DNA of 64,000 nucleotides, taken from the IMG/VR virus record IMGVR_UViG_3300040801_005898, one strand, 5' to 3'. Position numbers and translations under genes: made by a program. Positions 1,068 through 56,898 of this stretch are shown one piece after another; within the stretch, counting starts at the first letter, position 1, and every line of letters starts with the position of its first letter. This DNA comes from a virus. The notes under the pieces were generated by a model. It saw only the letters and a list, made by a program, of their open reading frames with translations. It had not been told where the DNA came from and did no database searches.

Positions 1068-4000
1068 ATGTTAGTTCTAAGAGAAGACGCGCAAAAGATA
1101 ATAACTGAATCTCAAATCAAAAGGATGACAGAGTTACTGCTTTCCTCTAAGGATTTTTACGATGAAGATGTCAAAATTTTGGAATTTGCGATTAATGATA
1201 ATGGTTCTATGTCAGGAAACTTTAAAGACTTGGACAATAACCGGGTTTTTGAGTTTGCTATAAATGGTCAAGATATTAGCTATAAACCTAGAATTAAAGG
1301 GCGTAGAGATTCTAGTAATTGGGACGACAATCGACTTTTGCTTCAATGGGAGGTTGAGTCTAAAATTTATCTTAAGCGGTTTCCAGAATCGCGGTTTGAT
1401 GCTCGTAAAAAGCGGGGCAAGGTAAAGAAGAAGCCAAAGTGTTCTGGTATTAGTTATAACTGCGGCAAACGGTGTTTGGGAGTTGATTTGAACTGCCGGG
1501 TTAGCCAACGGAATAATAAAAGCAAACAGCGTTTAGAAAACCTTCAAGAGCTAGCTAAAAAGCATAAAGCTGGTGAGGTAGGGCCGTTTTATGCTAACAG
1601 CGGGAAAAAGGCTAAAGAAGTTGAGGAGATGAGGAAGTCTGCTTATGAAGAGTCTATTAAGCGCAGGGAAACGGCAAGGGCTAAACGGAGGAGCAAGAAA
1701 GAGTCTGAAAATATTCAGCGTGGTAAAGAATCGGTAAAGAAGCGGAAGGCAGAAAAGGATAAAGGTAGCGATCGCGATCTATCTGAAAATGCTAAACGGG
1801 GCAAGAAATTAGTCGAAAAGAAAAAGGTTGAAAAATCGGCTAATGCTGAACCGTCTTCGCAAAGTCAACTTGTAAAAAATACTTCTTCAAAATCGTCATT
1901 ATCAACATCTAAAATTAAATCTAAAAGAGTCAAAAATGGTTTCCCTATGGTGACAACCAATATGATTGAAAATGACGCTAGAGGAAGATTTTTTAGAAGG
2001 TGGGAAAGAGAACAGCCTAAAATCCCTGGCAAAAAAGGTGATTTTACTGTTTTGAATGAAGACGGTAAAAGAAAAGAAATTTCTGGCGATAAATATGCCG
2101 ATTTGCTTGGCGTTGCTAAAAATGAACAGTCAGACGAAAATCCAGAATTACCTTATCATGTATATTCTCTTAAAACTGGTGAAAAGGTAATGAGAAAATT
2201 CGGTGACGAAAAAGATGCTGGATATGCTGCATCTTTGTTAATCAACTCTGGGATTGATCTTAAAAAAGAGCAATTTACGAATCGAGAAGAGGATGCTATA
2301 GTTGGCATTGCAAACGCTGTTAAAAATAAACAATATGATTTGTCGCTTGATGATGTTCGGCATGGAAGATTTCAGCAAGAAACTACCAAGGAAAGCAAAG
2401 AAGTCCAAAAGCAAAAGATAGAATCTAAACTGGCTGATACTAAAAAAAGGCTAGTATCTATTCGTGAAAAAGAACAAGATGGTATCCCCCGTGGAGTTTG
2501 GGATGTAGAAGACAAGCATATTTTGGAATACGATTTACGATATTACGAAGAACAATCAGCTAAACTTAACAGCCAAATTGTTGAACAAAGCGATCGCCCC
2601 ACAGAGAAACTATCCCCCACTGCGCAAAAAGGTAAAGAAGCGGTTAAAGAATGGAAAAAATCTAATAAAAAAGAACTAACTAATAAAAAGATATATCAAG
2701 AGCCTCCCAAGAAAACAATAGATGACCTTGAGAACAAACAGAAAGAAGGCGCAAGATACACTTCTAAAAATCCGTTTACACAAAAAGACAGCACGGAACT
2801 TCAACGCAGCAAAGATGGTTTTTCTTTTAATCCAAAAAATTCAGAATCTAAGTTGTGGAATACGTTAGAGAAGTTGGGAAATGATGAATGGCGAAAAGAT
2901 TTTGATAACGCCCCTAACGTGCCGCTAAAAAATGGATATGTTAAAAATAAAGGGTCTAATACAGGTGGGGGACCTGGTAAGTTGGGCAGAAAATTAAATA
3001 TTGCAAATACCAATCCAGAACGTTGGAAAGGAGGTGGAGGATATAGAATTGTAGATGCAAATACTCACTATGACCTTGATTTTAAAAGCAAGAAGTTATC
3101 TGATTTAAAACCAATATTAAACTATCTTGAGTCTTTGGATATTGACTTTGATAATCCAGAAAGATTAGCTTTTGGAAACCGCAATTTAGAAGGGGAAATT
3201 TTAAGAAAATTAGCAGCCAATTTAGAAGCAGATGATTTAGAGAGAAAAAAACAAAGCGATCGCTCCATAGAAACATTGTCTCCCACTGCGCAAAAAGGTA
3301 AAAAAGCGGTTGAAGAATGGAAAAAATCTAAAAAAAAAGAGATAACTAAAGGTGGAGAATATCAAGAACCAGCGACATCTGTAACAATTAAAAATCAAAG
3401 CGATTCTAAATATATTGCAGACATCAAAGTATTAAACCCTAAAAATGAGAAAATATTTAAACCTGCCGCATTTGAAGACCCAAACGACCCCAGATATACT
3501 CCCAAGCTAACCAGCAAGGAAATTAAAGACTTAAAAATCAAACTCTCAGAGGAAAAACAAGGGCTGACAGGAGGAGAACTTGCCAGGGTTAAATCTCATC
3601 GTACTTTGGGGGCAAATGGTGATTATATCAAGGCAAAAGGTGTCTCAAATCCTAAATTGCTGTTTAGTTCGGTAGATGAAAAGGAAAAAGCGATCGCGGA
3701 CTACCAGAATAATCTCGACAAAACCATCAGAGAGAAGACAGGTAAGCCATTCGATGAGAACTCCGACAACCACAATTATTGGCGGTATATAGCGCAGATA
3801 ACCCGTGATGAGCAGATAAAGACTTTTGAGGATGATTCTAATGATGTTGCGATAGAAGCCAGTCCCATCACGGTTAAGGCAGCAAAAAAACTGGTTGGCA
3901 GAAAAGATAACATGGTAGAAAGGGGTGGAAATGAACAGTTAAGCGTAAGTGGATGGAATGAATTTAATAAGATTGTGGCTAAAGACAACAATCTACCCAC

Positions 4001-5846
4001 ACCTTTGAAGCAAGAGTTGATAAATAATGCCAAGGAAGGAAAGGTTACTAATGCCCAAGGAAAGGCTGAGTACATTGCAGATATCAAATCTCTTGATAAG
4101 GATGAACAGAAACAGTTTGAACCCCACCCTTATTTTGACAATCCAGACGACCCCAGATATACTCCCAAGCTAACCCGCAAGGAAATTGACAACCTAAATA
4201 TCTCAGTCTTAGATGCAAAAGAAGGCATAGATAGTACCGAGTTTGCTCATGTAAAAGTCGATCGCACGCTAGGAGGAAATGGCGATTATAGTTATGCGTC
4301 CAGCAGAAATGCTGTCCAAAATCCTAAGTTACTATTCAGTTCGGTAGATGAGAAGGAAAAAGCGATCGCGGATTACCAGAATAATCTCGACAAAACCATC
4401 AGAGAGAAGACAGGTAAGCCGTTTGATGAGAGCTCCAATAACCGAGATTATTGGCGGTACATGGCGCAGATAGCACGGGACGAACAGATAAAGACTTTTG
4501 AGAATGAGTCTGTCAGTGTTGCCAAAGAAGCTAATCCTTACATGATTAAAGCAGCAGAAAAGCTGGTTGGCAATGAATACAACATGAGAGAATTTAAAGG
4601 CAAAAAAGAGCTAACCGAACGTGGATGGAAAGAGTTTTACGAGATTGTTCAAAAAGACCAGAATTTACCCAAACCCTTGAAGCAAGAGTTGATAAATAAC
4701 GCTACAGGAGGAAAGAGAGGTGGTGTCCAATCAGGAGAGGTAGAAAACCGTTTAACAAACAAAACTAAAACTTCTGAGAAATTAGAAAAGTTGGCATTAA
4801 ACCGAATTGAAAAAACAGAAAGTCAGTTAGAGGAAATAGCCGATCGCAAGCAAAACACTTCTCGCCGCGCTAACAAGGCTGACTATGCTAGAGAAAAGGT
4901 TACTAGGACTAAAACTAATGCTGAAACCTTGGTTAAGCTTGCTAGAGCAAACAAGGAAAATCGACTTTCCTCCGGGTTAAAAAATGTTTCCCAACTCAAA
5001 CAGTTAGAGGTAGTTGAGGAATTAGACCAGACTTTTGACAGTAATTTTACTTCAATTCATAATAGGTTAGAAGATGCTTTTGATGATACTGAGAAAAAGC
5101 AGGTTTTGAGTCAAATAGAAGTTAAAGATGTAAACGATTTGATTGGTGTTCTTAAGGAATATCGGCAGTACAAAAAAGATGCTCCAACTATGAGCAAAGT
5201 TGAAAGTATGGAGAGGGAACTAATAGGCAATAAGAATGCTGGTATTGACTATTTCCCCACTCCCCCCAAAGTGGCAAATAGAGTAGTAGAAAAAGCTGAT
5301 ATTAAACCGGGAATGACAGTATTAGAACCTAGCGCGGGAAACGGGGCGATCGCTGATGCAGTCCGACAATCTACTCCCTCTGCCAGGATTGCTACCAATG
5401 AGATTAGCGGTCAGCTTGTGGACATCTTGGAAGCAAAAGGATATAGCAACACTCAAAAAGACTTTTTGTCAATGCCTACAGGCCAAAAGTACGATCGCAT
5501 TGTAATGAATCCACCGTTTGGAAAAGGTACTGCCGGCACAGACCAAGCACATATCCGCCACGCTTATGAGATGCTTTCTCCTAATGGCCGTTTGGTTGCT
5601 GTTGCTTCTGAGGGGAGTTTTTCTCGGAGCGATCGCAATGCCCGAGACTTTCAGCAGTGGGTTGAGAGCATAGGTGGTGAGGTTGAAAAAGTGGAACCGG
5701 GAGCGTTTAAGTCTTCCATCAATCCCACTGGCACGGCAACCCGGATCGTGACTATTAATAAGGGCGATCGCCGCGACTCAGAAAATATCCGCCACGGTAA
5801 AATATTGGTTAAGGCATATCAAATGCAGAAAATGTTGAGAAGTTGA
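1068..5846 (+). CDS. large polyvalent protein (1592 aa) with C-terminal N6-adenine-type DNA methyltransferase domain
   Basis: C-terminal motifs YFPTP, VLEPSAGNGAI and VMNPPF; N-terminal leader plus Cys cluster (C-x6-CG-x2-C-x6-C); internal repeats. Confidence 0.85.
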   Translation: MLVLREDAQKIITESQIKRMTELLLSSKDFYDEDVKILEFAINDNGSMSGNFKDLDNNRVFEFAINGQDISYKPRIKGRRDSSNWDDNRLLLQWEVESKIYLKRFPESRFDARKKRGKVKKKPKCSGISYNCGKRCLGVDLNCRVSQRNNKSKQRLENLQELAKKHKAGEVGPFYANSGKKAKEVEEMRKSAYEESIKRRETARAKRRSKKESENIQRGKESVKKRKAEKDKGSDRDLSENAKRGKKLVEKKKVEKSANAEPSSQSQLVKNTSSKSSLSTSKIKSKRVKNGFPMVTTNMIENDARGRFFRRWEREQPKIPGKKGDFTVLNEDGKRKEISGDKYADLLGVAKNEQSDENPELPYHVYSLKTGEKVMRKFGDEKDAGYAASLLINSGIDLKKEQFTNREEDAIVGIANAVKNKQYDLSLDDVRHGRFQQETTKESKEVQKQKIESKLADTKKRLVSIREKEQDGIPRGVWDVEDKHILEYDLRYYEEQSAKLNSQIVEQSDRPTEKLSPTAQKGKEAVKEWKKSNKKELTNKKIYQEPPKKTIDDLENKQKEGARYTSKNPFTQKDSTELQRSKDGFSFNPKNSESKLWNTLEKLGNDEWRKDFDNAPNVPLKNGYVKNKGSNTGGGPGKLGRKLNIANTNPERWKGGGGYRIVDANTHYDLDFKSKKLSDLKPILNYLESLDIDFDNPERLAFGNRNLEGEILRKLAANLEADDLERKKQSDRSIETLSPTAQKGKKAVEEWKKSKKKEITKGGEYQEPATSVTIKNQSDSKYIADIKVLNPKNEKIFKPAAFEDPNDPRYTPKLTSKEIKDLKIKLSEEKQGLTGGELARVKSHRTLGANGDYIKAKGVSNPKLLFSSVDEKEKAIADYQNNLDKTIREKTGKPFDENSDNHNYWRYIAQITRDEQIKTFEDDSNDVAIEASPITVKAAKKLVGRKDNMVERGGNEQLSVSGWNEFNKIVAKDNNLPTPLKQELINNAKEGKVTNAQGKAEYIADIKSLDKDEQKQFEPHPYFDNPDDPRYTPKLTRKEIDNLNISVLDAKEGIDSTEFAHVKVDRTLGGNGDYSYASSRNAVQNPKLLFSSVDEKEKAIADYQNNLDKTIREKTGKPFDESSNNRDYWRYMAQIARDEQIKTFENESVSVAKEANPYMIKAAEKLVGNEYNMREFKGKKELTERGWKEFYEIVQKDQNLPKPLKQELINNATGGKRGGVQSGEVENRLTNKTKTSEKLEKLALNRIEKTESQLEEIADRKQNTSRRANKADYAREKVTRTKTNAETLVKLARANKENRLSSGLKNVSQLKQLEVVEELDQTFDSNFTSIHNRLEDAFDDTEKKQVLSQIEVKDVNDLIGVLKEYRQYKKDAPTMSKVESMERELIGNKNAGIDYFPTPPKVANRVVEKADIKPGMTVLEPSAGNGAIADAVRQSTPSARIATNEISGQLVDILEAKGYSNTQKDFLSMPTGQKYDRIVMNPPFGKGTAGTDQAHIRHAYEMLSPNGRLVAVASEGSFSRSDRNARDFQQWVESIGGEVEKVEPGAFKSSINPTGTATRIVTINKGDRRDSENIRHGKILVKAYQMQKMLRS
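1767..3340 (+). repeat. three dispersed linker repeats within the 1592-aa ORF, each starting at a HIP1 site
   Basis: SDRDLSENAKRGKKLVEKKK (~1767), SDRPTEKLSPTAQKGKEAVKEWKKS (~2589), SDRSIETLSPTAQKGKKAVEEWKKS (~3255). Confidence 0.8.
3411..4700 (+). repeat. tandem ~210-aa domain duplication
   Basis: YIADIK...DPRYTPKLT...NPKLLFSSVDEKEKAIADYQNNLDKTIREKTGKPFDE...PLKQELINNA occurs at ~3411-4030 and ~4071-4700. Confidence 0.95.
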
Positions 5847-6050
5847 TAACCAAGATGTGACTTATCGACAATTTTAAAAACCCCATTTGCCAATATCAAA
5901 CCCATATTCTTTCTGATGGTAAATGGTTCGATTTTTGCTGCCGCATTAGGGTGGTGGGGTGTTTTTGTGTATCCCGTGGATGCTTCTAAAGCGATCGCGT
6001 GTCTGCGGGGAACCCACATCCACTGGCTGCTAATATTTGATTGCGCTTTT

Positions 6051-6443
6051 TTAGTCTAATGTAGAACCTTGAAACTTTATTTCATCTAGTAGCGAAGACA
6101 ATTTTCTATATACTTTTTTCCCACTGCCTGATGTAGGGATTTGCAGTTGCAGTTGCGGATATTGGTTTAAGGCATCGACAACTTTTTTCAATACCTCGAT
6201 TTGGTATTGGAGGTCGTTGACACTAACTTTAAATTTGGCTTTTGTTTTGTACCGACGAATTTCGGTAATTGTTGATTTTGTCAAAGGGTTCGTCCAAGTT
6301 ATCCACTGAGAGATTTTTACCGTGGAAGTCTTTATGTCCCCGTCAAAAATTCGGCGATCGGTTATGAATAAATCATAAGTCCCCCTTGGTTTTGGATTTT
6401 TGTTTACTTCCTCAAAATCTGGCAGCATTTTTGCAATTTCCAT
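6051..6443 (-). CDS. hypothetical protein (130 aa)
   Basis: ATG-started ORF with plausible composition. Confidence 0.65.
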   Translation of the reverse strand: MEIAKMLPDFEEVNKNPKPRGTYDLFITDRRIFDGDIKTSTVKISQWITWTNPLTKSTITEIRRYKTKAKFKVSVNDLQYQIEVLKKVVDALNQYPQLQLQIPTSGSGKKVYRKLSSLLDEIKFQGSTLD

Positions 6444-6481
6444 TTTTTTGTTAGTGCTAGTTGTTGTTTTGATGGCACCCT

Positions 6482-6578
6482 ACTGTTGACAGGGTTGGCG
6501 GTGCAAGCTTTACTGTTGACATCTTAATGGTGCGCACCGCGCACCCTACTAACTGTTGGCATCTACTAACTGTTGACA
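6482..6578. repeat. four copies of ACTGTTG(A/G)CA (pseudo-palindrome TGT-NN-ACA); candidate operator or iterons
   Basis: Copies at 6482, 6512, 6552 and 6569 in an intergenic region. Confidence 0.7.
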
Positions 6579-6604
6579 CCATTGGGGGCTATTTTACGGC
6601 AGAC

Positions 6605-6730
6605 TTAACTGCCTTTTTCGCGTTTCACCATCTCAAGTAATGCCTGCCGGGCATTGTCTGTCCAATTGGGGATGGCCCGAATTTCTTCGAGCAACTCGGC
6701 AGAAATTCTTAACAAAAATTGGCCCGTCAT
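6605..6730 (-). CDS. small ribbon-helix-helix-like regulator (41 aa or longer, not in ORF track)
   Basis: Manual translation MTGQFLLRISAELLEEIRAIPNWTDNARQALLEMVKREKGS*; alternating hydrophobic beta-strand then two helices. Confidence 0.55.
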   Translation of the reverse strand: MTGQFLLRISAELLEEIRAIPNWTDNARQALLEMVKREKGS

Positions 6731-6795
6731 TCGTTTTTCGCTTTTTTGGGGCTGCCTATAATGATACCCGCAAATATGCTTGAGGTAAGTCGATT

Positions 6796-7722
6796 TTAAT
6801 CTGTTTCAGAGATTGTCTGTTGATTTCCTGGGGGAGGTTGTGGAGCGATCGCTTTCCTCCTCAAAACATCTGGCAACTCAGTTTTAGGAGGCTTAACCTC
6901 TTCCACCACCTTAAACCCACCACCGCGAGTTAGTTTGCACGCCAAATCCACAAAATACAGGGATGGTTTGTCCTCTCCTTTCTTCCACGGGGGAACTGAA
7001 GGTTTATCCCAATTAACTCTATGAGTTTTGGGTTTTAGAGATTTAATTAGCTTGTTTTCGTCATCTATCTTGCGCAGTTTTTTGCGAGATTTAGGGTTTC
7101 GAGGAATAGTAACTTTTCCCGGCCTGGCAGAATTGTAGAGACCTCGCATTTTAAATTTGTTGGTTTTTGCATTATCTGGAGTAATTTCTGCAAATCCCCA
7201 AAGCGATAAAATCTGACATCTTCCCCCAAAAGAAATCGGGTGAACTTTTAATAAAAGTTTGGTTGGAAAAGTCTGTTCTAAAAACGATTCCCAAACTTTA
7301 CCGTGGTGGGTTTGAGGAAAGACTGGATAATTATCGCCATTAACAGAAGCGGTAATATCATCTCCTTCTCTTGAGACCTTGCAGACAATCTCTCCCACCG
7401 CCTGATAATAATCCTTTTTAGACTTATTAGGCTTTGCTGGTTTCTTAGGCTTTTTGGGCTGAGGCTGAGATTGCTTTGCCTTTTTACGCTTTTTCTTCTT
7501 GCGCTTTTTACCAGGGTTTAGTTGAGGACGATTAAACCCTTTAGGTTTTTTTTCCGTTAATTCCGTGGCGGACCCGAGTATCTCATTCTGTTTCACCAGC
7601 ATTGCATTGCGAACATCCTCTAATGGTTTGCGGATAGAAGGTTTTGCATTCTTCATCCCTTCCAAAATATCGTTTAGTTGCTCAATCCTTTTTTGTATTT
7701 TTTGTATGCTTAATTCGGGCAT
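6796..7722 (-). CDS. hypothetical basic protein (308 aa)
   Basis: Long ORF; N-terminal coiled coil and Lys-rich linker. Confidence 0.75.
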   Translation of the reverse strand: MPELSIQKIQKRIEQLNDILEGMKNAKPSIRKPLEDVRNAMLVKQNEILGSATELTEKKPKGFNRPQLNPGKKRKKKKRKKAKQSQPQPKKPKKPAKPNKSKKDYYQAVGEIVCKVSREGDDITASVNGDNYPVFPQTHHGKVWESFLEQTFPTKLLLKVHPISFGGRCQILSLWGFAEITPDNAKTNKFKMRGLYNSARPGKVTIPRNPKSRKKLRKIDDENKLIKSLKPKTHRVNWDKPSVPPWKKGEDKPSLYFVDLACKLTRGGGFKVVEEVKPPKTELPDVLRRKAIAPQPPPGNQQTISETD

Positions 7723-7765
7723 TTTCTGTTAATATTTGTTTAGTAAAAGCAACACAGATTTTGTC

Positions 7766-8788: not shown

Positions 8789-8790
8789 GT

Positions 8791-8922
8791 TTGGCCAATA
8801 TAAGTTTTTCTCATTAATTAAACTGCATTGTCTCCAGAATACTAATCGATTAGGGGTTGACACTCATGGGTATATGAGTCTAATGTGGGATTGTCAGAGA
8901 AAAGCAGAGGACAAAACAATGA
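8791..8922 (+). repeat. 132-bp direct repeat, copy 1 (promoter + operator + RBS + ATG cassette)
   Basis: Near-identical to 9558-9689; contains TTGACA, palindrome ACTCAT-N6-ATGAGT, GAGG and ATG. Confidence 0.95.
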
Positions 8923-9155
8923 TTGTAGCATCAGGAAAATATTATCAAGTCCGGTTAGTGACTGTGCCGGGCAGTCGCCATGAAATAGACTTGTGTCATA
9001 CAGCAGGAGATAAAACTTATCATTTTAGCGAACAACAAAAAGGTTTCAAAACTTTAGTTGACGTTGACAATGAAACTGTTGACAAAATAAGCGAAAAAGT
9101 GCTTGCTAACTATCATTATTACAGGAAAAACAGAGGAAAAAAGAATAACAATTAA
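8919..9155 (+). CDS. hypothetical protein (78 aa, start MIVASGK)
   Basis: ATG and GAGG RBS supplied by repeat copy 1; followed by a terminator. Confidence 0.7.
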   Translation: MIVASGKYYQVRLVTVPGSRHEIDLCHTAGDKTYHFSEQQKGFKTLVDVDNETVDKISEKVLANYHYYRKNRGKKNNN

Positions 9156-9180
9156 TTTTACCTTTGAAACAAATCCAATT

Positions 9181-9218
9181 AAACCGGAGGATTGCTAGAA
9201 CCTCCGGTTTTTTATTTT
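9181..9218 (+). terminator. intrinsic terminator
   Basis: AAACCGGAGG/CCTCCGGTTT 10-bp stem followed by a T-rich tract. Confidence 0.85.
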
Positions 9219-9291
9219 TAGCGGTTGTTTTCCCAACAAATGACACTCAGCAGTAAGTAAAATATGATAGAAAATTGCAATTTTAAAAACT

Positions 9292-9570
9292 ATGTCTAAA
9301 CGACTTGCCAAAACACCAGAGGCAAAAGCAAAGCAAGTAAAACACTTGCGCCCTAAGCCCAAAAAGAAAAATCCCACATCAACTAAGAGGAATTTATCTC
9401 TTACCAAAGGGCAACTAGCTAAGTTGGAGGCGATCGCTTCCAACCCGCAAGCAAAAGAAAAGGTGCTTCAGTTGTTGCCGCCTGCTTATCGGACAGACTT
9501 AGAAACTGGAGAACCATTAGAAACGTGGCAGGCCATAATTAGAAATTATATCGAAACTTGGCCAATATAA
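9292..9570 (+). CDS. putative RHH/CopG-like regulator
   Basis: Basic N-terminus, RNLSLTKGQLAKLEAIA...WQAIIRNYIE pattern; promoter ATGACA-N17-TATGAT at 9240-9268. Confidence 0.55.
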   Translation: MSKRLAKTPEAKAKQVKHLRPKPKKKNPTSTKRNLSLTKGQLAKLEAIASNPQAKEKVLQLLPPAYRTDLETGEPLETWQAIIRNYIETWPI

Positions 9571-9689
9571 GTTTTTCTCATTAATTAAACTGCATTGTCT
9601 CCAGAACACTAATCGATTAGGGGTTGACACTCATGGGTATATGAGTCTAATATAGAATTATCAGAGAAAAGCAGAGGACAAAACAATGA
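9558..9689 (+). repeat. 132-bp direct repeat, copy 2
   Basis: Matches 8791-8922 at offset 767 with about 5 mismatches. Confidence 0.95.
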
Positions 9690-9940: not shown

Positions 9941-10047
9941 ACTTGGCGATCGCTTTTATCGAGCCATTCCTCAATAAGAGCGATCGCCTTTTTCTCTTTA
10001 GCGTTTATCCACGGCGATAAGAAACCGCTGCCAAAATTAATCGCCAT
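9886..10047 (-). pseudogene. N-terminal fragment of a PAPS-reductase (CysH-like) family gene
   Basis: MAINFGSGFLSPW...VYCSVSGGKDSLVVGHLVR contains the PP-loop SGGKDS; protein-like sequence ends after about 54 aa. Confidence 0.75.
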
Positions 10048-10887: not shown

Positions 10888-10908
10888 CCTTTATCATAAA
10901 CCTTTTTT

Positions 10909-49500: not shown

Positions 49501-52500
49501 CAGCACTGGCAACAATTTTTCTAATGTCAATGTAAGATTAAAGAAAGTATGTTGCACGAACCGGACAATTGCTGCATCCCTAGCAAAACTAGTGGCTAGC
49601 AACCCTAATGTCACTATAACTGCAGTCACCGCACCACTGAATCCAGTTGTCAGAAAATCTTTTAGCGCTACTAAAGACTCTCCAAATGCTTTTAAGTTAG
49701 ACCCTAAAAACTCCATTAATTCTGTTTGAGAGGTTAAAGCATTAAAAGCTTTGAATAACCCATAAATAGTTCCTGTCAGCAAAACAGTTTTTAGTGCCCA
49801 AGCTCTAAACATTGCTGAAATATTTCTAACTACTATATTCAGTAAAGAAGTATTTTGCGTCGCCGCAATATTTGCAGTTACATAATTTTGAAGCGCAAAA
49901 CTAATACTATTAATGGCTGCTTGTCCAGATGCTAGAGTTCTTGGATTAAGACCTAATGAGGCCAGTCGGTTATTAGCCATAGCTCCTAACCCCTGAATAC
50001 CGATGGGTAATGCCCCGATCGCTTTGGTTATTAGGTTTAATGCGCCAGCGCCCCGGATAATTCCTCCTAACCCCGCACCTTGGATAGCTAGTCCTGAGAT
50101 GGCTGGCAAAACTGCTGTTAATGCCGGTGCTAATGGTCCAAGAACTCCTAAAAATCGAGTTAAGGCAGTTGTCATCCCTGGAATAAATGCCATGTTTTTC
50201 CCTAATGTTAAGAATGCTGCCGCACCGCCACCTAAGTTTTTAGACAGAAATCCAAATTGATTAATTAATGGCAAGGTTCGCACTGCTAGCAAGCTCATCA
50301 ACCCACCCACTCCTGGCAAAACTCTAGTCAACATCCCAAACATTCCAGAAAATATCGATATTCCTGATGTTAGCACTTTAAACTGAATTGCTGCCTTGAT
50401 CAATGGAGAGCCAAGTCCAGTAACAAAACCTACTAATGTTTTAAAAGCGTCAATAAATGGCTGTAATATTCTTAATGTATTTTTAACTGAATTTCTGACT
50501 ATTTCTATAATATTTGCGATCGATTCCAATACAAATAAACCTGTTTCTCCACCGCCTTTGCCTACTATCACTGAAACCAGTTCTTTGATAGTGTCGATTA
50601 CTCCTTTAAACGCTCGGTTAGTAACAGCAGCAACTTTATGGGCAAACTCCATTATTTTCTGCTGAGAACCAACCAAATAAGTGTAAAGTTTATCTAGCTC
50701 TGCTCTGAAAGTCTCAAATAAAGGTCGTCCGCTAATTCTCTGAACCTCTTGGAAAAAATCAAGAATATTTGAAGTTAAGCCAGAAACGTTTTTAGATGCA
50801 ATTTCCTGTCCTTGAACCAAAGATGACAATCTTTCTTGAAGGTTCTCTATTAGTTTTCCTTCCAATTTCCATTTTTTGATTGTGGGGTTTCTTACATCTA
50901 AAGTCTTAGCAAGTAAAGAATCGTTGGTGATGTCACCCATTAGTATCGACCTGATTTCTTGGGTTGCTTGGTTAGCAGGCAAGTTGATAGTCGAAAGACC
51001 TGAAGCAAAAGAAACGGTTAAATCTATGGCATCTTGTAAAGACGCTCCTATTCCTCCCATCATGCCAGTTACGATAGAGAAAGGTTCTATCAAGTCGGAA
51101 CTTGTAAAGGTCGCTAGGTCAAGCGATCGCTTTCTTAACGATTCTATAGAACGCTCAATTAATGGTTTTGTCTGAGCAAAAGAATCCAACCCATTAATTT
51201 GTCTGCCTGAAGTCTTGTCAACTAGCTTGTTTGTTGCGATAATTCCAGATTGAATACGAAGTATCTGTTGCTCCAACTCAGTATTTTGTCTGATAACTGT
51301 AGCGATCGGGTTTTGTTGGGCAAACATTGTGATAATTGAGAATCCTTGCTGTATCATAAACAGCGCGTTCCCTAAGTTCATAAAGCTATTAACGACTCTA
51401 CCAACTACCGTCATTTTCTGCCAAAATGCTCCTGCGGCATCGGTGGCCATGACAAGATTGTTTGCTACGTTACTAACAAAACCCGTGACTTGAGCAAATC
51501 TTTGTGGAACTTGCTGTATTCTTTGGGCAGTACCTAATATCTGATTGTCAAAAGCATCAAAAAATGGGTAAATTGACTCCATAAATCCGCTTAAAATACC
51601 TTTCCCTACCGATGCTCCTATGGTTCGTCCGCTTTGCTTAAATATATCTGCGATCGCGCCATTAGTTTGTACATTCCACGTTTCTACTTGCTCGACAATT
51701 TTTAGCCCTTTGGCAAATTGCGGGAATTGTGATAATTGAGAAAAGGCATTTTTAGCAACATTTAAAGTTTTAGTAAATCCACTTTGATAATTTTTTGTGG
51801 TGGTGTCGATTTCTTTATTAATAATACTTCTTACCATACTCATTTCTTTTTGAGTAAGGGTTGCATCATTTCTTAACCTTTTCACTAATGCCGTTAATGG
51901 GCTAGCCTTCTCTGCACCACTGGCATATTGAAAATTAAATTGCTGTAGTGCGCTTAGTCTTTTATTCAATTTAGCGATCGTATCATTAACACCTCTTTGT
52001 TCGCTACGGCTACCAATATTTCTTTGAGATTCTAAAAGCCTGATTTGTTCGCTAACTGCCTGATAATACTGTCTGCTATGTTTTCCTAGATTACTGTCAA
52101 TTAATGCCTCCATAAGTTCGGGTTCAGCACTTTTGCCCAACCGCTTAAAAATCATTTTTTGTTTGTCCCTAGAAAAACTTTTTCTACCTAGCGACAGTAA
52201 ATATTCTTGTTGGGTACTATCATCTAGGGTAGGTCGCAATAGTTGTGCTTCCATAAATCGTTTTTTATCAGCACGAAGAAAATTATCGCCTGTTAGTTCT
52301 TGCCGCCATCTTTTGAGCCTTTCTGATTCCCTTGCGGCTCTATCAATTCCTTTTTGCAATTGTTTTATCTCTGATTCAATACCAGAACGTTGTCTAGTGA
52401 TTTCTTCATCAGGCATATCAAAAAGGTTTGCTCTATCTCTTTTTATTTGCTGAAGTTCATTGTCTGTTTGCCTAAATTTAGCTTGAGCATCTATTCTTTT

Positions 52501-54921
52501 TGACATTCCGTAAAAACCTCGGAAATGGTTTTTAATAGCAAAGTCAATTGCCTTAGACGCCATTCTATTGATATCTTTAATTACTTTTTGATTGTTTTTT
52601 ATCTCTGAAGGAGCAACTTTTTGAATATCGGTAACAATGCCAGATATAGCATCTTCAGATATTTTGTTAATTTTGTTTTTTAAATTTTTAATTTTATTTT
52701 TTATTTTTAAGTCTCTAGTTGGCGAAGCGGCAAATTCTCTTTGGGCTTCTTGCAGTTGATTAACCAAGTCTTTTCTTTGTTCAAAAAGTTGATAACTCTT
52801 ATCTGTAGCAGAAATTTTAAATAAGCTTGGCAGTTCATTATCAACAAAATTTTTCGCTTTACTAGATGCTTGCCTTCTGGCTTCTGGCAAGTCAATAAAT
52901 TGATTTGCATTGGCGTTTTCGTAAGCAGCACGGATGGCATTATCTCTTAATCTTCCAGATTTTCGCAACCCAGACCCGCCGACTCCTTCTCTAAATGCTG
53001 TTTTTACTCTAGTGTCTGTTACGTCTATAAAATTAATATATGCTTCTAATCTGCCTTTTTCTCGTATTAGTTGTCTGCGTCTGTTATTTAAGTAAGTCAT
53101 GTCTAGCTTTTTAAGTTGCTGCTGCAACTTTTCTATTTTTTGGTTGCCCGCGCCATAAATAGAAGATTGCTCTCTAATATAATTTTGAACTTTAGAAAAA
53201 ATGCTTCTAGCGTCTTCTCCTAAAGCATTAGCAACTCTTTCAATCGGTTCCGGCAGTTTGTCAAAAACTTTGCTTTTTAAGCTAACCATCCATTCTGGGG
53301 TCTGTTGCGCCAGAAATTCTCCTACTGCGTTTATGCTTGTGCCAGCTAAATTAGTAAGCATACTTTCTGCTATATTTTTGCCCACAGTATTATTTAAAAT
53401 TAGCCCTAGATTCTCTATAGGACTAGATGACAAACTTTCCAAACCCATATCTGCAATAGAACCAAAAATTTTACCTGAAACCCCGGAACCCCTTAATTTA
53501 TCAATGTTTTGGAATAAAGAAGCAAGACCGGGTACTTGGTTTAACTTGCTATTGCCAAGAAGATTGTTGATACCTTCTGATGCTTGTTTAAAACCTGGTA
53601 AACCTGACAACATATTTGTTATTGGTTCAACACCTAGTATATCGTATAAAAACCTTGAAGCCGATCCTCTACCTTCTATCATCCTCCCTATTGTTTCTGT
53701 TATCGGTGATGCTGCTAAAAAAGGACTAGAAAACTTGGAAATATTCTTTAAAAAGTCTGTAGTACCTAATTGGTTTACAATTCTTTGAGAAAAATCTTCT
53801 AAAAAAGGTTGGATTTTTCTTTCTACAGTTGTAGTTTGCTCATACCCAGATGCACCGAATAATTCAGCATCAAGATACTGCAAGCCAGACCTTTGTATGC
53901 TGGGGGAGGCATTTTTAATAGTTTTTGAAATTATTTTCTCTATACCCGGTCCAATTTGCTGATCTAATGCTTCAAAGTAAAAACCTAATGCATTGGTAGC
54001 CATTTTTTTGACAACTCTGGAAGCTAAATATTCGGTGGCATATTCTTTTCCAATATTCAAAATATCATTAGATAACCCACTTGTCGATCTCAAGTTTATT
54101 TGCTTCAAACCTTGCTGCAATAAACTAGGCAACCCAGACATTTGTGGAATAGCTTGCATTGAGCTTATTGGCGCTAATCTATCGATAAATGTTAATAATG
54201 AAGGGTTTATCTTACCAAATAGCTTTGCGGTAGTTAGCAGCGTAGGAGCGATGTCTTTTGATAGACCTGGTAAACCACGGGTTTTGACTTGTTTACCAAA
54301 AAGTTCTGCATCTATGCCTGTTATGCTCGATCGCAGTCCTCTGGCGAGCGGCTTTTTTAACTTATTAACAATTTCTTTTTCTATGTCAGTGCGGTCACTA
54401 AATCCTAATAGTCCCTTGCCCCCCGCATAGCCTATGTCTGCCATTCCTCTTAGCACGTCTGAAAGTTTGACATTAGTTTGTAATGTTTGTGCAGCTTGTT
54501 TATGAATTTGAGAATAAAAGGTACTAATTGATTTAAAAGGAAGTAAAGATGGTGCTGTAATTTTTTGATTAAAAGTAGTAACCGCTTGATTTGTTGCTCG
54601 GAATAAACTTCTAGTCAATGTATCCATAGTAAACTGAACAACGCCGCTAATTGACCGCGTTATTTTTTGAGCGCTATTTACTGCAATATTATTAAGATTA
54701 GAGAATAGATTTGTAGCGCTTTGGGTTAAAGCGTCAATCGATTGTATTCCACTGCCAATCAAACCAGAAAATATTTTACCAATAGAAGAAGATGTTTTAT
54801 TAGCAGCAGCAACTACACCGGACAGATGAGCATGAATATCCCTGAACACATTAGTAGTGTTGTTGATACCATTAAAAACTATATCAATTGGTTGACTGTT
54901 AATGTTGTTAGTGAATACCAT
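43507..54921 (-). CDS. giant tape-measure-like protein (3804 aa)
   Basis: Helical Ala/Gly-rich central region with hydrophobic segments, long coiled-coil C-terminal half, upstream of tail fibre genes. Confidence 0.8.
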   Translation of the reverse strand: MVFTNNINSQPIDIVFNGINNTTNVFRDIHAHLSGVVAAANKTSSSIGKIFSGLIGSGIQSIDALTQSATNLFSNLNNIAVNSAQKITRSISGVVQFTMDTLTRSLFRATNQAVTTFNQKITAPSLLPFKSISTFYSQIHKQAAQTLQTNVKLSDVLRGMADIGYAGGKGLLGFSDRTDIEKEIVNKLKKPLARGLRSSITGIDAELFGKQVKTRGLPGLSKDIAPTLLTTAKLFGKINPSLLTFIDRLAPISSMQAIPQMSGLPSLLQQGLKQINLRSTSGLSNDILNIGKEYATEYLASRVVKKMATNALGFYFEALDQQIGPGIEKIISKTIKNASPSIQRSGLQYLDAELFGASGYEQTTTVERKIQPFLEDFSQRIVNQLGTTDFLKNISKFSSPFLAASPITETIGRMIEGRGSASRFLYDILGVEPITNMLSGLPGFKQASEGINNLLGNSKLNQVPGLASLFQNIDKLRGSGVSGKIFGSIADMGLESLSSSPIENLGLILNNTVGKNIAESMLTNLAGTSINAVGEFLAQQTPEWMVSLKSKVFDKLPEPIERVANALGEDARSIFSKVQNYIREQSSIYGAGNQKIEKLQQQLKKLDMTYLNNRRRQLIREKGRLEAYINFIDVTDTRVKTAFREGVGGSGLRKSGRLRDNAIRAAYENANANQFIDLPEARRQASSKAKNFVDNELPSLFKISATDKSYQLFEQRKDLVNQLQEAQREFAASPTRDLKIKNKIKNLKNKINKISEDAISGIVTDIQKVAPSEIKNNQKVIKDINRMASKAIDFAIKNHFRGFYGMSKRIDAQAKFRQTDNELQQIKRDRANLFDMPDEEITRQRSGIESEIKQLQKGIDRAARESERLKRWRQELTGDNFLRADKKRFMEAQLLRPTLDDSTQQEYLLSLGRKSFSRDKQKMIFKRLGKSAEPELMEALIDSNLGKHSRQYYQAVSEQIRLLESQRNIGSRSEQRGVNDTIAKLNKRLSALQQFNFQYASGAEKASPLTALVKRLRNDATLTQKEMSMVRSIINKEIDTTTKNYQSGFTKTLNVAKNAFSQLSQFPQFAKGLKIVEQVETWNVQTNGAIADIFKQSGRTIGASVGKGILSGFMESIYPFFDAFDNQILGTAQRIQQVPQRFAQVTGFVSNVANNLVMATDAAGAFWQKMTVVGRVVNSFMNLGNALFMIQQGFSIITMFAQQNPIATVIRQNTELEQQILRIQSGIIATNKLVDKTSGRQINGLDSFAQTKPLIERSIESLRKRSLDLATFTSSDLIEPFSIVTGMMGGIGASLQDAIDLTVSFASGLSTINLPANQATQEIRSILMGDITNDSLLAKTLDVRNPTIKKWKLEGKLIENLQERLSSLVQGQEIASKNVSGLTSNILDFFQEVQRISGRPLFETFRAELDKLYTYLVGSQQKIMEFAHKVAAVTNRAFKGVIDTIKELVSVIVGKGGGETGLFVLESIANIIEIVRNSVKNTLRILQPFIDAFKTLVGFVTGLGSPLIKAAIQFKVLTSGISIFSGMFGMLTRVLPGVGGLMSLLAVRTLPLINQFGFLSKNLGGGAAAFLTLGKNMAFIPGMTTALTRFLGVLGPLAPALTAVLPAISGLAIQGAGLGGIIRGAGALNLITKAIGALPIGIQGLGAMANNRLASLGLNPRTLASGQAAINSISFALQNYVTANIAATQNTSLLNIVVRNISAMFRAWALKTVLLTGTIYGLFKAFNALTSQTELMEFLGSNLKAFGESLVALKDFLTTGFSGAVTAVIVTLGLLATSFARDAAIVRFVQHTFFNLTLTLEKLLPVLINTFSGLANFTQAIAKLPVVGSFFQHISLHANKTAYSLETVGKRMHALRLDYLFTNSVKTFNKVKKDPNSTENDKTVARQAMEKNRKDYYSYLSANPEAKLQIFSGRTAGKVQGLGNKIAGLGDRISRTNVRMRVIGKTINFLGLKVQGLGNKFATLGIKANSAFAKLPTFLKMSIVMAKGLAGAIAGIIGMVAPLLVLAAAIQAVGFAWKTFVTRPRLLQDLEDSRKKLAETDQESAIAMGKMKKILEETNEERKHGIALSQKQYEEITYNKKILEERLKTLKIEKEILETKMQQANLSDTAVREDSKLTSKSLERIQKYVEENVEIANSTALTDKSIKYRKNEIIKNARVTKEDLSEYLKLRKEKSFVQNVMSEIGDSNSFSQAFKGQIEAIDKEIKANETLQEKYTSIQPRDLPLAGNMLKQIGDNADLAWSAIQNPTGDAELFKKNLENVTKLNSQLYELGQISAEEAIEKITKVTETQVEATTGQIEAAYKAILGLIDKQAAEVSDRISRRQKELEAEAATGEINKVTLHARTVELQREDMLNKKRATQRKLDEAWRMDDLKSVAKFQNEVANLENQITATVAEETRKWYELSRADIEEDAQETLAVEKNRFEAGMTGLVNHETTKKNILSESYAKQRQLLTKQINSLNTQDIEGREKLIAEKMALYEKERQAQQQFYQALEKDLKASLDRSKVLLDKDRAEGEILESTYLEDELKLTDKYAQDRYNLIRKQLTGGRELSIEARKDLMSELEKIDLESIESDRKYFEARLSLIKEYGEVEKNVLAGQLATGGITSQADFLSQEFDLIKGTRNNQIGEIFAELENPKISEKRRNQLRSQLGQLQQEDKQARKSFFDSRMQLLSEAQQNEIKLQDVARQTNQINSAKANQKEYETTSQYLSDRLQLIKSELAKEEPLTVEEREKMQVQLAKIELEEKTARQKLFDSQIDLLTKNFEKESAIKNSAHELGKLKSAKYYQETYRETAKNLSDRIKLIQDRLQKESQLTASEKQDLVAQIAQLEVEQKTARQKLFDEEMKLIESFYQKVSVVQEEAYNYERISSIEYYQDQYNATKSQLNAKLEMLQEKLETETTLTLEEKQKLQIEISKINIEMLNEEQKYFDARIKLIESASNHETALLSSQLAQGLVSQRNYNQQTFNEELQLLNKRRSLIQKRLRDTLNPETRQNLEMALAKTFEEANGAAERYFDNSVKLLDELSNYQTMSLEKSIMSGAIGEEQYESKKLQQTINNLSQRQKLVEEHYGRLAKSAENRQKLESEITKIAQEREKAHVEYIDKTIAIAERKMQTAMDVIKLSELEFQKLTRQLVAFGDGTLDRNQLKRRALAEEYTNTKKQLELQLRLHRDLNQIKFDDPRRQEEHQQKIRNSLKQTTELEIRLLDLQREKFEQMLDTKVAKARNEVTATVQEMEKQLNPSNFNKQVLDQQSTLVSTRQSLNNSLVSLVRNEFEIAEKLEKSDRKRQQIKEAAAKYEIQALEYQQQLKQQALEIEIRQMQISQERAEIENEIARIHATAQIAEAQANLAKTKADPNASNEQIIAAELELRARQMEVDALGRQRGLILGQRYVMGQQIKAKIIEDEISNIIASRKAQLRLAESYDNPTIKRVMMEKIKQGKSFDDLFDFNFKVADMVSSIQSEFDKSANKVTSEIGNEFGALKKVISQEIDILGQKINKTSADSNNESDGLSNKHKGIMVSPIIPTEKNYIETPEDKERARQLEETRKIMERVREEVDEVRDRTTRLPKTIENPSAVEQKPWTSTEEFNKDYWDQIDINKYPQYQQDHLREQKRQMEMWNGVNEWYENGGIEKELRKKMQNEGWTQEEMALWDEVRSMPKINAYEPDPNSANRKKRFKLDNVIDQKRIDKEYEREMKRVEKEAIRDNFSLNMIKLPTSKINVEPINSNAQSQQGDRSLLSSIGGEVRKIATEIKNIGKSGVGDITINNTATAGDTQDLMAQMKNQTLKTLDGVLEKTMKMQYG
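45600..47700 (-). repeat. ~88-aa periodic repeats in the tape-measure protein
   Basis: LSDRLQLIKSEL..TARQKLFD and LSDRIKLIQDRL..TARQKLFD are 264 nt apart; further degenerate copies flank them. Boundaries approximate. Confidence 0.75.
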
Positions 54922-55068
54922 TTTTGTTAAATATTGTAATTCTTATTAGTTTGATGGCAGTGACAAAGAATGCAAATACAATCTGGCCCACTTTCCCGTT
55001 TTTTGCGCATTGTTTCGCTTATCTTTTACATTTCCCACATTTCCCACATTTTAGCAGCTACAATCAAA

Positions 55069-56898
55069 ATGAAACCAATTTTTAAAAAATCAACGATGGA
55101 AACAGCATTTTCCTCCTCGCACGCGAAAAAAATGGCCCAAATTACGGCCCTTGTGGAAGCTATTTTTTTAGATTTGGCCCCTTCCTTGAGCCGTTTTAAT
55201 ATTAAGCTTTTGAAACTAAAACACTATAAAAACGGCAATGTTGAAGGTTTTTGTCAAGAGCAGACTACGAGGTTAATTTTTAAGTTTTTTCTTGACGACA
55301 ATGGTATTACATACGAAGCATATTTTAATAATGTTAAAGATGCTTTTTTGACTGACCAAAAGTTATTACTTCAATCGTGGAAGGAATCATCTTGCGCTTA
55401 TAATGACAAATGCAATTGTCAAAGAACTGATTCTTTATCGACAAATAAACGAACCTGTCAAAAATTACCGTGTGGTGATAGTTGCATATCGACTCAATAT
55501 ACTTGTCGTTTAAACGGCAGCAACCAACCAAACAAGAAGTCGATAACTAGACTCAAAGCATTAAATCACATTGCTAAACAGGTTCAGCAAAAAAGGGGAA
55601 GAACATCGACTAATTTACCAAGCCTAACTCCTCAATCTCGTGTAATCTTGCCAGAAATAGCTAAAAATAATATTTCCTTGAAAGCGATCGCGTTGTCTTC
55701 CGGCGTACCTAAAGCAAAGGTGGCTGAAACATTAAACTTGTTTGCCGATGGCGTTTCTTCTATGGAGTTAGCTAGTCAGCTACAAGTTCCCAAAGAAAAA
55801 GTAGCTCAAATACTGGAAGGAGTTAGTCAGGTTTTACCCAAGAACGACCCCGAACTTGCCGTGGAAAAAGCCCTGCAAGAAAATTCGTTTGATAATCCAC
55901 ATCAGAAAGGAAGAGATGTGGATGAGGATGTGGATGTGGATGAGGATGTGGATAATAAAAAGCGCAAAGACTCCAGTGGCGATTCTATTCCATGTGGCAA
56001 TTCCTTCATATCGGCAAAATATACTTGTCGCCAAAAACAAACTAAAATTCGCTTATCTCCTGTTGCCAAAAAGGCGATGAGGAAAGGAAGAGCAAGGTAT
56101 TTAACCACAAAAAAAATATCTAAACTTCCTATTTTTCAGCAATATGAAAATAACTTGAAAAAGACAGGAAAAATCTTGAGAAATAATCCAGAAGCTATTG
56201 AAGATATGAAGTTAGGCAGATACGCGGAAAAACCAAGGAAAACTGATAAAAAGCAGTTGACGTTTTTTTTAGCAGGATTGTCTGATAAAGAATCACAAGT
56301 TGAAAATGGTTATAGATATCTTAAAAAACAGTTTGATAGAGAAGGGTTTTCTAGAAAAACTGAGTTATTTTCAATGACTCAAGAAGAATCAAACAGAGGA
56401 AAACCAAAAGCTATTTTAAGCGTAGTAGCTGGAAACTTAAGCAAAGGGAAAAATCCTGATGCCGAGAAAATAGCAAAGCATATTTTGGAATGGAAAAAGA
56501 AAAATCCACACGCTAAAATAAATTTAGTGGGTCATAGTGGAGGAGGACTAACCGGCAAAGATGTTGCTTATATCTTATCTGAAGCAGGAGTGGATAAAAA
56601 CAATGTTAAAACAATGACATTAGGCACTCCTTATTTAGATATTTATCCCCAAAAAAATGCCATTAAAAATATTGTCAATAAAGATGATTTATCTAACAAA
56701 GTTCCTGTTAGGAATGAACGGTTACAAGAAATCAAAGACAGACCAAATGTTGAAAAAAACATAGAAAATGACTCTAGGTCTCATTCGCTTACTAGCTATG
56801 TTTCGCCCCGTTTTAAAACAGAAGATAACCGATATATTAAAAACCCTGCTTACAAAAAAGTGACTGATGAAATGCGAAACTTCTTTGAATTTAGTTAG
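55069..56898 (+). CDS. leader/Cys-cluster protein with C-terminal alpha/beta-hydrolase (lipase-like) domain
   Basis: NLVGHSGGG nucleophile elbow, TLGTP, candidate Asp (NKDD) and His (SHSL); two CG-x2-[CF]IS-x4-C modules; likely start 55069. Confidence 0.8.
   Translation: MKPIFKKSTMETAFSSSHAKKMAQITALVEAIFLDLAPSLSRFNIKLLKLKHYKNGNVEGFCQEQTTRLIFKFFLDDNGITYEAYFNNVKDAFLTDQKLLLQSWKESSCAYNDKCNCQRTDSLSTNKRTCQKLPCGDSCISTQYTCRLNGSNQPNKKSITRLKALNHIAKQVQQKRGRTSTNLPSLTPQSRVILPEIAKNNISLKAIALSSGVPKAKVAETLNLFADGVSSMELASQLQVPKEKVAQILEGVSQVLPKNDPELAVEKALQENSFDNPHQKGRDVDEDVDVDEDVDNKKRKDSSGDSIPCGNSFISAKYTCRQKQTKIRLSPVAKKAMRKGRARYLTTKKISKLPIFQQYENNLKKTGKILRNNPEAIEDMKLGRYAEKPRKTDKKQLTFFLAGLSDKESQVENGYRYLKKQFDREGFSRKTELFSMTQEESNRGKPKAILSVVAGNLSKGKNPDAEKIAKHILEWKKKNPHAKINLVGHSGGGLTGKDVAYILSEAGVDKNNVKTMTLGTPYLDIYPQKNAIKNIVNKDDLSNKVPVRNERLQEIKDRPNVEKNIENDSRSHSLTSYVSPRFKTEDNRYIKNPAYKKVTDEMRNFFEFS

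Follow-up and report, generated by a model that had tools for sequence, protein, structure and literature searches.

Two genes lying far apart in a 64,000-nt stretch of viral DNA (IMG/VR record IMGVR_UViG_3300040801_005898, here called the window) encode proteins that begin alike and end in different enzymes, and the question raised by this locus is what the common beginning is for. The window is part of a tailed cyanophage or phage-like metagenomic contig. The first protein, P0001, consists of an N-terminal module, a Lys-rich linker, a large unassigned middle part, and a C-terminal N6-adenine methyltransferase (MTase). The second, P0002, has the same kind of module and an alpha/beta-hydrolase domain. 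A preliminary description, made from the letters of the DNA only, had proposed a modular capsid-loading and processing system for injected effectors, with the leader as packaging tag and RxD as the cleavage site of a maturation protease. The analysis reported here identified a previously undescribed N-terminal module of about 150 residues, which stays the same from protein to protein while the enzymes behind it vary widely. P0001 and P0002 are probably effectors of the 'polyvalent-protein' type, packaged in the virion, processed by a protease, and injected by a cyanophage of the lineage of phages PaV-LD and CL131.

The N-terminal module: homology, anatomy, and cargo

The two N-termini are homologous. 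P0001 and P0002 were aligned by BLASTP at E=3e-10, with 24% identity over 135 amino acids (aa). The features in which the likeness had first been noticed are all present in the translations: the starts SGNFKDLDNNRVFEFAINGQDISY (P0001) and EGFCQEQTTRLIFKFFLDDNGITY (P0002), the strings LLLQW and LLLQSW, the motifs RFDA (aa 109-112) and RTDS (aa 152-155), and the cysteine clusters C125-x6-C132-G-x2-C136-x6-C143-R and C162-x5-C168-G-x2-C172-x6-C179-R, respectively. Four PaV-LD proteins match each window N-terminus independently, with tblastn E values down to 2e-25 for P0001 and 9e-9 for P0002. When a profile of the two window modules (leader plus Cys cluster) was built, 109 cluster representatives were found among 1.84 billion proteins, 38 of them with E<1e-10; the clusters were formed at 50% identity and come from cyanophages and metagenomes. 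Against the family profile, of which P0002 is itself a row, the P0002 module has an independent E of 1.9e-25 in hmmsearch. In an alignment of 87 sequences (A5), G50, D111, C125, C132-G133, C136, and C143 (P0001 numbering) are invariant, and both window proteins carry all of these positions in the right order and spacing. The module occupies aa 12-165 of P0001 and aa 46-205 of P0002, N-terminal in both and followed by unrelated cargo. With a pairwise identity of just 24%, chance or low complexity might be suspected, and this is already refuted by the pairwise E value, the 109-member family with its invariant G, D, and C-CG-C-C columns, and the common fold, which is predicted with confidence; its probability is negligible.

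No Pfam or PHROG family covering the module was found. Word-indexed protein searches with the P0001 or the P0002 module gave no match, because the family is too divergent for exact words, and there was none in an IMG/VR locus search with the P0001 module. Family versions of high GC content occur on contigs binned with Cyanobium, which shows that the family extends beyond the phages of filamentous hosts.

The P0001 module was modelled in AlphaFold2 with the 87-sequence alignment, with a mean predicted local distance difference test score (pLDDT) of 80.7. Helix 14-25 is followed by four strands within residues 35-74, helix 88-104, a flexible basic Lys-rich linker, a knuckle hairpin at 129-146, and helix 150-168. 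The module has three parts: a small alpha/beta domain; between one and three R-x-D-[S/A] motifs located in flexible loops, with an invariant final copy; and a basic linker with a four-cysteine (4-Cys) knuckle and a helix. The RRDS motif in the loop behind the sheet has pLDDT <50 at residues 80-83. RFDA falls in a low-confidence linker both in this model and in one of the RxDA-knuckle-helix unit alone, which has a matching hairpin (pLDDT about 87) and an unstructured RxDA region. Structure searches with the whole module reached a best E of 0.1 in Foldseek against PDB, a template modelling score of TM<=0.40 in the ESM Atlas, and, in VIA wide, a best Z of 5.0 on generic VirB8/cystatin/NTF2-type alpha+beta rolls, which is below that tool's noise level. 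No structural match with Z>=2 was found for the knuckle model alone. The predicted fold is thus reported as one for which no match was found, and a new fold is not claimed. Matches in BFVD were solely PaV-LD and Nodularia phage proteins, and unnamed entries with lengths fitting CL131 ORF045 and half of ORF048 (ORF, open reading frame).

Within the family, the knuckle has the spacing C-x5-7-C-G-x2-C-x6-C. Among 130 knuckle copies, the first and third cysteines (C1 and C3) are both present in 120 and both absent in 10, with no mixed case; in copies lacking them the third Cys is F, H, or W, and C2 and C4 are always retained. This co-variation argues for two cysteine pairs, not one four-ligand zinc site. 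A zinc ribbon or zinc knuckle, which would call for two CxxC-type pairs in a four-ligand site and for a known fold, was rejected as identity on this spacing, on the joint loss of C1 and C3 in these 10 copies, and on the fold search of the knuckle.

The RxDA-knuckle unit is also found without the alpha/beta domain, either at the extreme N-terminus or as up to six internal repeats, and each internal repeat of the long proteins precedes another domain. Almost all internal knuckles are preceded by R-x-D-A, for example in ARLDALKRKC...CG..CIS, and the Asp is >=90% conserved in 83 knuckle units. Proteins that start with a short peptide, RxDA, and a knuckle look like minimal versions of the module. 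P0002 has a second unit of its own, in which RKDS and a degenerate 2-Cys knuckle stand directly upstream of the hydrolase domain; the arrangement is kept in P0003, a P0002 homologue of 583 aa (54% identity). P0003 begins at about residue 55 of P0002, whose gene has two alternative starts besides the first ATG: 55069 (609 aa), adopted in the preliminary description, and 55096 (600 aa), called on a contig with identical sequence upstream of P0002. One of these two is likely the true start. Between the knuckles of P0002 (aa ~225-300, about 55640-55870), two similar helix-turn-helix-like segments (GVPKAKVAETL and QVPKEKVAQIL) without family match were observed.

The enzymatic identities first proposed for the two cargoes hold. 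The C-terminal domain of P0001 matches Pfam MTS (7.3e-9) and phrog_15406, 'DNA methyltransferase' (1.3e-68), and also several PHROGs with profiles 1,259-3,925 positions long. P0002 matches Lipase_3 (3e-5), DUF915 (1e-4), and DUF676 (0.013) of Pfam at aa ~490-590, and a similar hydrolase domain is carried by the multi-knuckle proteins P0082, P0090, and P0111. Judged by these matches, the cargo of P0001 is most likely a DarB-like DNA methyltransferase and that of P0002 a lipase or esterase. In the 109 representatives, Pfam recognized InPase in 9, GNAT models in at least 5, ART/PARP-type domains in several, ParB_N in 3, protein kinase in 2, and zeta toxin, DnaJ, LPD1, and PI3/PI4 kinase once each. 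Several alpha/beta hydrolases and pentapeptide repeats were also found among them, and ORF079R of PaV-LD is a module joined to an ADP-ribosyltransferase (ART). By this list, the repertoire is that of the phage 'polyvalent proteins'. One domain of that repertoire was recognized in each window protein, the MTase in P0001, with about 1150 residues unassigned, and the hydrolase in P0002.

On a metagenomic contig with 63% GC (L009, 8935-17120), at least three consecutive proteins begin with ...ARLDA-x-KRKC-STGY-CG..CIS. These are P0034, an LPD1 protein, and one with a weak Peptidase_M90 match, all following a portal and a MuF protein that is separate from them. The stretch looks like a whole operon of knuckle-tagged effectors.

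The R-x-D-[S/A] motif in the module and in head proteins

Three candidate sites are present in the P0001 module (Table 1). At site 2, upstream of the knuckle, the Asp is conserved in 87/87 modules (D111), the Arg in 77/87 (R109), and A, G, or S follows in 71/87 (residue 112). P0001 is the sole window ORF of at least 100 aa with R.D[SAG] in its first 32 residues. The preliminary description had taken [RK]xD[AS] as punctuation of module boundaries. The motif is not enriched by raw count, and the significant result is its conserved position before the knuckle and after the sheet; two further copies in P0001, KKDA (1369) in mid-protein and RRDS (1568) at the C-terminus, have no comparative support in the family.

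The same motif marks the head proteins of related phages. In 220 ORFs of >=100 aa from four phages, R.D[SAG] occurs within the first 32 aa of 10/12 portal, capsid, and protease-scaffold proteins vs 0/192 other ORFs (Fisher p ~2e-15); two knuckle proteins are also positive. In these three kinds of head protein it lies 8-22 residues from the N-terminus. In capsid proteins it is found at residues 8-12, as TTRLDA (PaV-LD), EIRMDA (CL131 ORF040), and DIRMDG (related locus L005), and the capsid protein of L007, which has no propeptide, starts natively at about the place where the others would be cut. Portal proteins have YREDS, SRQDS, IRYDA, VRTDG, or YRLDG within their first 22 residues, and the protease-scaffold proteins each start with IRLDA, IRFDS, or YRADS. 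In the scaffold part the motif is enriched 7- to 15-fold, with 12 copies observed vs 0.83 expected in ORF071R, the protease-scaffold protein of PaV-LD, 13 vs 0.85 in L007, 5 vs 0.52 in L005, and 9 vs 0.7 in the Cyanobium contig L013. The CL131 protein, ORF038, has three strict copies, a number that rises to nine when the first position may also be H or K. Since this pattern is known from phages T4, SPN3US, and phiKZ, R-x-D-[S/A] is read by analogy as the probable maturation motif of the head lineage. The module carries the motif of the capsid, portal, and scaffold proteins, and so is probably a propeptide-type signal by which injected enzymes would be loaded into the capsid and cut.

Metagenome-assembled contigs binned with Cyanobium (L011-L013) encode knuckle proteins, a portal with N-terminal YRLDG, and an R-x-D-rich protease-scaffold homologue; they are either prophages or co-binned phage contigs.

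Pbunaviruses share the PF09979 protease-scaffold and the capsid family with these relatives. The solved capsid models of Pa193 and E217 (PDB 9B40 and 8FRS) start at residue 66, right after A-M-D-S. The first 93 portal residues are missing from map and proteome of Pa193/E217, for which the authors suggest cleavage or disorder. In phage PaGU11 (AP018815.1, 8071-17538), A-M-D-S was observed at 62-65 of the capsid protein, about 70-73 of the portal, and about 410-413 of a gp24-like protein. To judge from these positions, A-M-D-S may be an undescribed maturation cleavage motif of the therapeutic Pbunaviruses.

Proposed packaging and processing, and the competing readings

Homologues of the module are present in virions. 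In a local profile search of Aphanizomenon phage CL131, ORF044 and ORF047 have a knuckle at the N-terminus, ORF045 a whole module (weak match), and ORF048 five units. All four were detected by LC-MS/MS (liquid chromatography coupled to tandem mass spectrometry) of purified CL131 virions; ORF048 has the top score of the 23 virion proteins, with 175 peptide-spectrum matches (PSMs), and ORF045 has 123 PSMs (PMC6293099 Table S5). These data are direct evidence for the homologues, not for the window proteins.

Module genes always lie in virion blocks of one head lineage, characterized by a PF06381 portal, the PF09979 protease-scaffold, a PF09950 capsid protein, and a PF13262 protein. In PaV-LD there are four full modules (ORF061R, 065R, 078R, and 079R) and four partial ones, namely a half copy in ORF083R and the Cys cluster only, at the start, in ORF080R, 081R, and 085R; all lie between the portal and tape measure genes. 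Two positions recur. Modules of CL131, L004, L003, PaV-LD ORF078R-085R, and P0002 of the window face or precede a tape measure gene; the knuckle proteins of CL131 (ORF044-048) and L004 are directly upstream of its homologue, and P0002 is transcribed divergently from it, a pairing seen also in L003. After portal or capsid genes lie PaV-LD ORF061R, the knuckle proteins of L012 (behind the portal), and the module proteins of L005, one after the capsid genes and another after the portal. P0001 ends an operon (window 3-1065, continued upstream in L014, 4263-8806) that is syntenic with the portal-ending block of L005 (11817-17683), and the gene immediately preceding the L005 portal has its homologue in the ORF at 3-722 (tblastn, 34% identity, E=2e-36). 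The upstream part of the operon recovered in L014 corresponds to L005 11817-16226. Both window genes are thus close to virion genes, P0002 to the tape measure homologue and P0001 through this pre-portal synteny. It is likely that P0001 and P0002 are packaged in virions.

The proposed mechanism would run as follows. The precursor would be built into the procapsid, where the PF09979-type protease-scaffold would cut the effector at R-x-D-[S/A], as it would cut capsid, portal, and scaffold at the same motif. The cut would remove the leader and, in multi-unit proteins, separate the cargo domains. The mature effector would then begin with the basic, Cys-knuckle piece, which would stay on the cargo and exit the capsid with the DNA. 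For P0001, removal of aa 1-112 is predicted; for P0002, removal of everything through RTDS155, with the hydrolase possibly freed after RKDS335. A protease site is the more probable identity of R-x-D-[S/A].

The capsid-loading and processing system of the preliminary description is supported in part, through independent lines of indirect evidence: the variable cargo, the position of the genes in virion blocks, the homologues in CL131 virions, and the lineage-wide R-x-D pattern. The step that is weakened is the leader as packaging tag. CL131 proteins made of a short peptide, RxDA, and a knuckle are packaged, and the alpha/beta leader therefore cannot be the sole packaging determinant. Whether the leader is a targeting element at all is somewhat doubtful.

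Several findings weigh against packaged and processed effectors, the knuckle-only CL131 proteins among them, which speak against the leader as tag. By raw count, P0001 has 5 copies of [RK]xD[AS] vs 2.8 expected from shuffles (P=0.14) and P0002 has 2 vs 0.8 (P=0.20); this is not significant, and the count was therefore rejected as evidence on its own. The LC-MS/MS data of CL131 are protein-level and do not directly evidence cleavage, the label 'head maturation protease' for PF09979 comes from PHROG annotation alone, and disorder instead of cleavage is, according to the authors, possible for the missing N-termini of E217 and Pa193. Several module genes adjoin the tape measure gene, which would fit a location in the tail lumen equally. 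For the window phage, neither the window nor the recovered 8-10 kb flanks yielded genes for capsid, portal, or protease. Within 8 kb upstream (L014) no portal was found, and an ORF of 119 aa occupies its place; the 10 kb past the 3' end of the window (L019) contain a terminase and unassigned genes, and no PF09979 or PF09950 homologue was found there. Since the head genes of the window phage were not recovered, the logic of the motif is transferred from relatives. In a complex prediction, the L005 module and the L005 protease-scaffold scored 0.00, with the partner poorly folded, a result that counts neither for nor against the reading.

The alternative that survives best is that the effectors are packaged uncut and at full length, with R-x-D-[S/A] as a scaffold-type docking motif to the capsid interior or core. 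The 9-13 copies in the scaffold part of some PF09979 proteins fit this reading, as does Pa193 gp24 (PF09979), which its authors describe solely as a scaffolding protein binding the capsid interior. However, the solved Pbunavirus capsid models begin exactly behind A-M-D-S, the segment preceding the motif is naturally absent from the capsid protein of L007, and a place 8-22 residues from the N-terminus, as seen in three different head proteins, is what propeptides typically show. Docking without cleavage is accordingly considered unlikely.

A tail-associated location seems less probable still. The proteins would be placed in the tail lumen or at the tail tip along with the tape measure protein and be delivered from that site, and the knuckle would be an element binding the tape measure or the tube. 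In its favour, genes of CL131, L004, PaV-LD, the window, and L003 either immediately precede the tape measure gene or diverge from it, these proteins are very abundant in CL131 virions, and no major tail protein was identified in CL131. Against it, other copies follow portal or capsid genes, the motif is shared with proteins of the capsid, portal, and scaffold, and these encounter the protease nowhere but inside the procapsid, and the cargo enzymes have cytoplasmic targets.

Very improbable is a metal- or DNA-binding regulatory domain of cytoplasmic, non-virion phage enzymes, with the likeness due to domain shuffling only: four Cys and a basic linker do resemble small nucleic-acid-binding knuckles, and the window genes are outside any obvious head operon, but the homologues are in purified CL131 virions, the genes are consistently in structural-gene blocks, and the perfect C1/C3 co-variation with its 2-Cys variants is at odds with a four-ligand zinc site.

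If packaged and processed effectors are taken further, R-x-D-[S/A] and the basic Cys knuckle could form a portable 'load, cut and inject' cassette of the whole cyanophage lineage. Any domain behind it would be loaded into the procapsid, released by the PF09979 protease, in the manner of a polyprotein where there are several units, and delivered into the cyanobacterial cell. The knuckle, as a mini-fold of a new kind in which two Cys pairs co-vary, would hold the cargo to the DNA or steer its passage through the tail, and the cleavage specificity of the widespread PF09979 family would be defined, including A-M-D-S of Pbunavirus. In this full form the proposal is speculative and more likely to fail than to hold.

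Features of the window and comparison with known systems

Table 1. Coordinates of the two genes, their modules and cargoes, and associated features in the 64,000-nt window
Feature	Position (nt)	Strand	Basis or remark
P0001 gene	1068-5846	+	1592 aa; ORF list, translation
Candidate delivery module of P0001 (aa 1-172)	1068-1583	+	AlphaFold2 model, alignment A5
REDA (aa 5-8), candidate site 0, putative N-terminal propeptide	1080-1091	+	Equivalent in 26/87 modules
RRDS (aa 79-82), candidate site 1, loop after beta sheet	1302-1313	+	RRDS/KDA site kept in 59/87 modules
RFDA (aa 109-112), candidate site 2, invariant, upstream of knuckle	1392-1403	+	Family alignment
4-Cys knuckle of P0001 (C125, C132-G133, C136, C143)	1440-1496	+	A5 columns, hairpin model
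Putative N6-adenine DNA methyltransferase cargo of P0001 (aa ~1340-1575, NPPF motif)	5085-5792	+	
P0002 gene	54970-56898	+	642 aa from first ATG
Candidate delivery module of P0002 (aa 46-205)	55105-55584	+	BLASTP, family-profile hmmsearch, tblastn to PaV-LD
RTDS of P0002 (aa 152-155), equivalent of site 2	55423-55434	+	Alignments A1, A2, A5
4-Cys knuckle of P0002 (C162, C168-G, C172, C179)	55453-55506	+	
Second internal unit of P0002: RKDS (aa 332-335), then 2-Cys variant knuckle CGNSFISAKYTC (aa 342-353)	55963-56028	+	
Putative alpha/beta-hydrolase (class 3 lipase-like) cargo of P0002, GHSGGG nucleophile elbow	56437-56739	+	
Last two genes upstream in the operon ending with P0001	3-1065	+	
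Tape measure homologue, 3804 aa	43507-54921	-	tblastn: PaV-LD ORF088R 2e-48, CL131 ORF049 6e-48

The window further encodes RusA, a class II ribonucleotide reductase, an M23 peptidase, a GH108 lysin, several DNA methyltransferases, a DUF3854 primase-type protein, a tail fibre, and, at the 3' end, a fragment of the terminase large subunit. Its tape measure homologue is 3804 aa long vs 1584 aa in PaV-LD and 2131 aa in CL131, and a very long tail would be expected if the protein serves as a ruler of tail length. The protein is shared by PaV-LD, a phage that has been called tailless or a podovirus and that, on this likeness, may really be a siphovirus. P0001 has an internal duplication of aa ~802-992 and ~1023-1216 (3471-4043 and 4134-4715, 77% nucleotide identity), which includes repeated 'YIADIK...DPRYTPKLT' segments in a region without family match. 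Between a DHH-like gene and the next operon there is a 132-nt direct repeat (8791-8922 and 9558-9689, 96% identity) without an ORF of >=100 aa.

Injected phage proteins decide the first minutes of infection, in anti-restriction and host takeover, and are hard to recognize from sequence. The module and motif would give a sequence rule for the set of injected effectors of Planktothrix, Aphanizomenon, Nodularia, and Cyanobium cyanophages, whose hosts are bloom-forming; so far the set comprises ADP-ribosyltransferases, kinases, acetyltransferases, pyrophosphatases, lipases, and methyltransferases. The cleavage specificity of the PF09979 protease-scaffold family, present in about 1,700 sequenced phages including therapeutic Pseudomonas phages, is made testable in this way, together with a cargo-loading handle like that of T4 for cyanophage engineering and the chemistry of the new cysteine mini-domain.

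Two known classes were rejected for the window proteins. The MuF toxins, reportedly described by Jamet et al. in 2017, and proteins like SPP1 gp7 are said to combine a constant N-terminal head-incorporation domain with variable C-terminal effectors, often in a gene after the portal. A MuF polymorphic toxin is ruled out by the missing N-terminal PF04233 (Phage_Mu_F), of which neither P0001 nor P0002 (E<=0.1) nor any of the 109 relatives has a match, and in L009 a separate MuF protein coexists with the knuckle proteins. DarB of phage P1 is a large capsid-delivered anti-restriction protein with an N6-adenine methyltransferase and a helicase of superfamily 2 (SF2). P0001 does not belong to the class defined by MTase plus SF2 helicase: no helicase domain was matched in it by Pfam or PHROG, no sequence relationship was shown outside the MTase fold, and the packaging determinants differ.

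The polyvalent proteins of Iyer et al. 2017 (PMC5512222) are multi-domain effectors for which packaging and injection are predicted, and they combine MTase, ART, InPase, GNAT, ParB, kinase, and LPD domains. Their processing, however, is attributed to metallopeptidase domains within the proteins and not to any prohead-protease motif lying between domains (PMC5512222). The module is not mentioned in the text of PMC5512222, in which 'cysteine', 'cyanophage', and 'Planktothrix' have 0 occurrences.

In the giant phages SPN3US (gp245) and phiKZ (gp175), the capsid protein, the portal, and abundant ejection proteins carry propeptides 20-254 residues long, with the motif AXE or S/A/G-x-E (PMC10052503). 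The N-terminal propeptides on these three kinds of protein and the multiple copies of the motif within propeptides (PMC10052503) would be common to both systems, whereas motif, protease, and lineage differ, and the cargo there consists mostly of non-enzymatic paralogues and here of a wide enzyme set.

The capsid targeting sequence (CTS) of T4, known from IPI, IPII, IPIII, and Alt, is a propeptide of about 10 residues ending in the gp21 motif (PMC9026906). There, as proposed here, the propeptide ends in a prohead protease motif that capsid and core proteins also carry; behind it stands variable cargo, which in its mature form is injected along with the DNA (PMC9026906). Such sharing of the motif was found in capsid, portal, and scaffold proteins of the relatives, not in head genes of the window phage itself. 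The T4 motif is L/I-x-E, whereas here it is R-x-D-[S/A], and the leader is up to a folded alpha/beta domain of about 100 residues. In further difference from T4, the Cys knuckle would stay on the cargo, the unit can be repeated in one polypeptide, the PF09979 protease and the capsid belong to another lineage, and cleavage is predicted. By these comparisons, the system is most likely a new module, motif, and protease lineage within the known capsid-targeted, protease-processed, and injected phage effectors.

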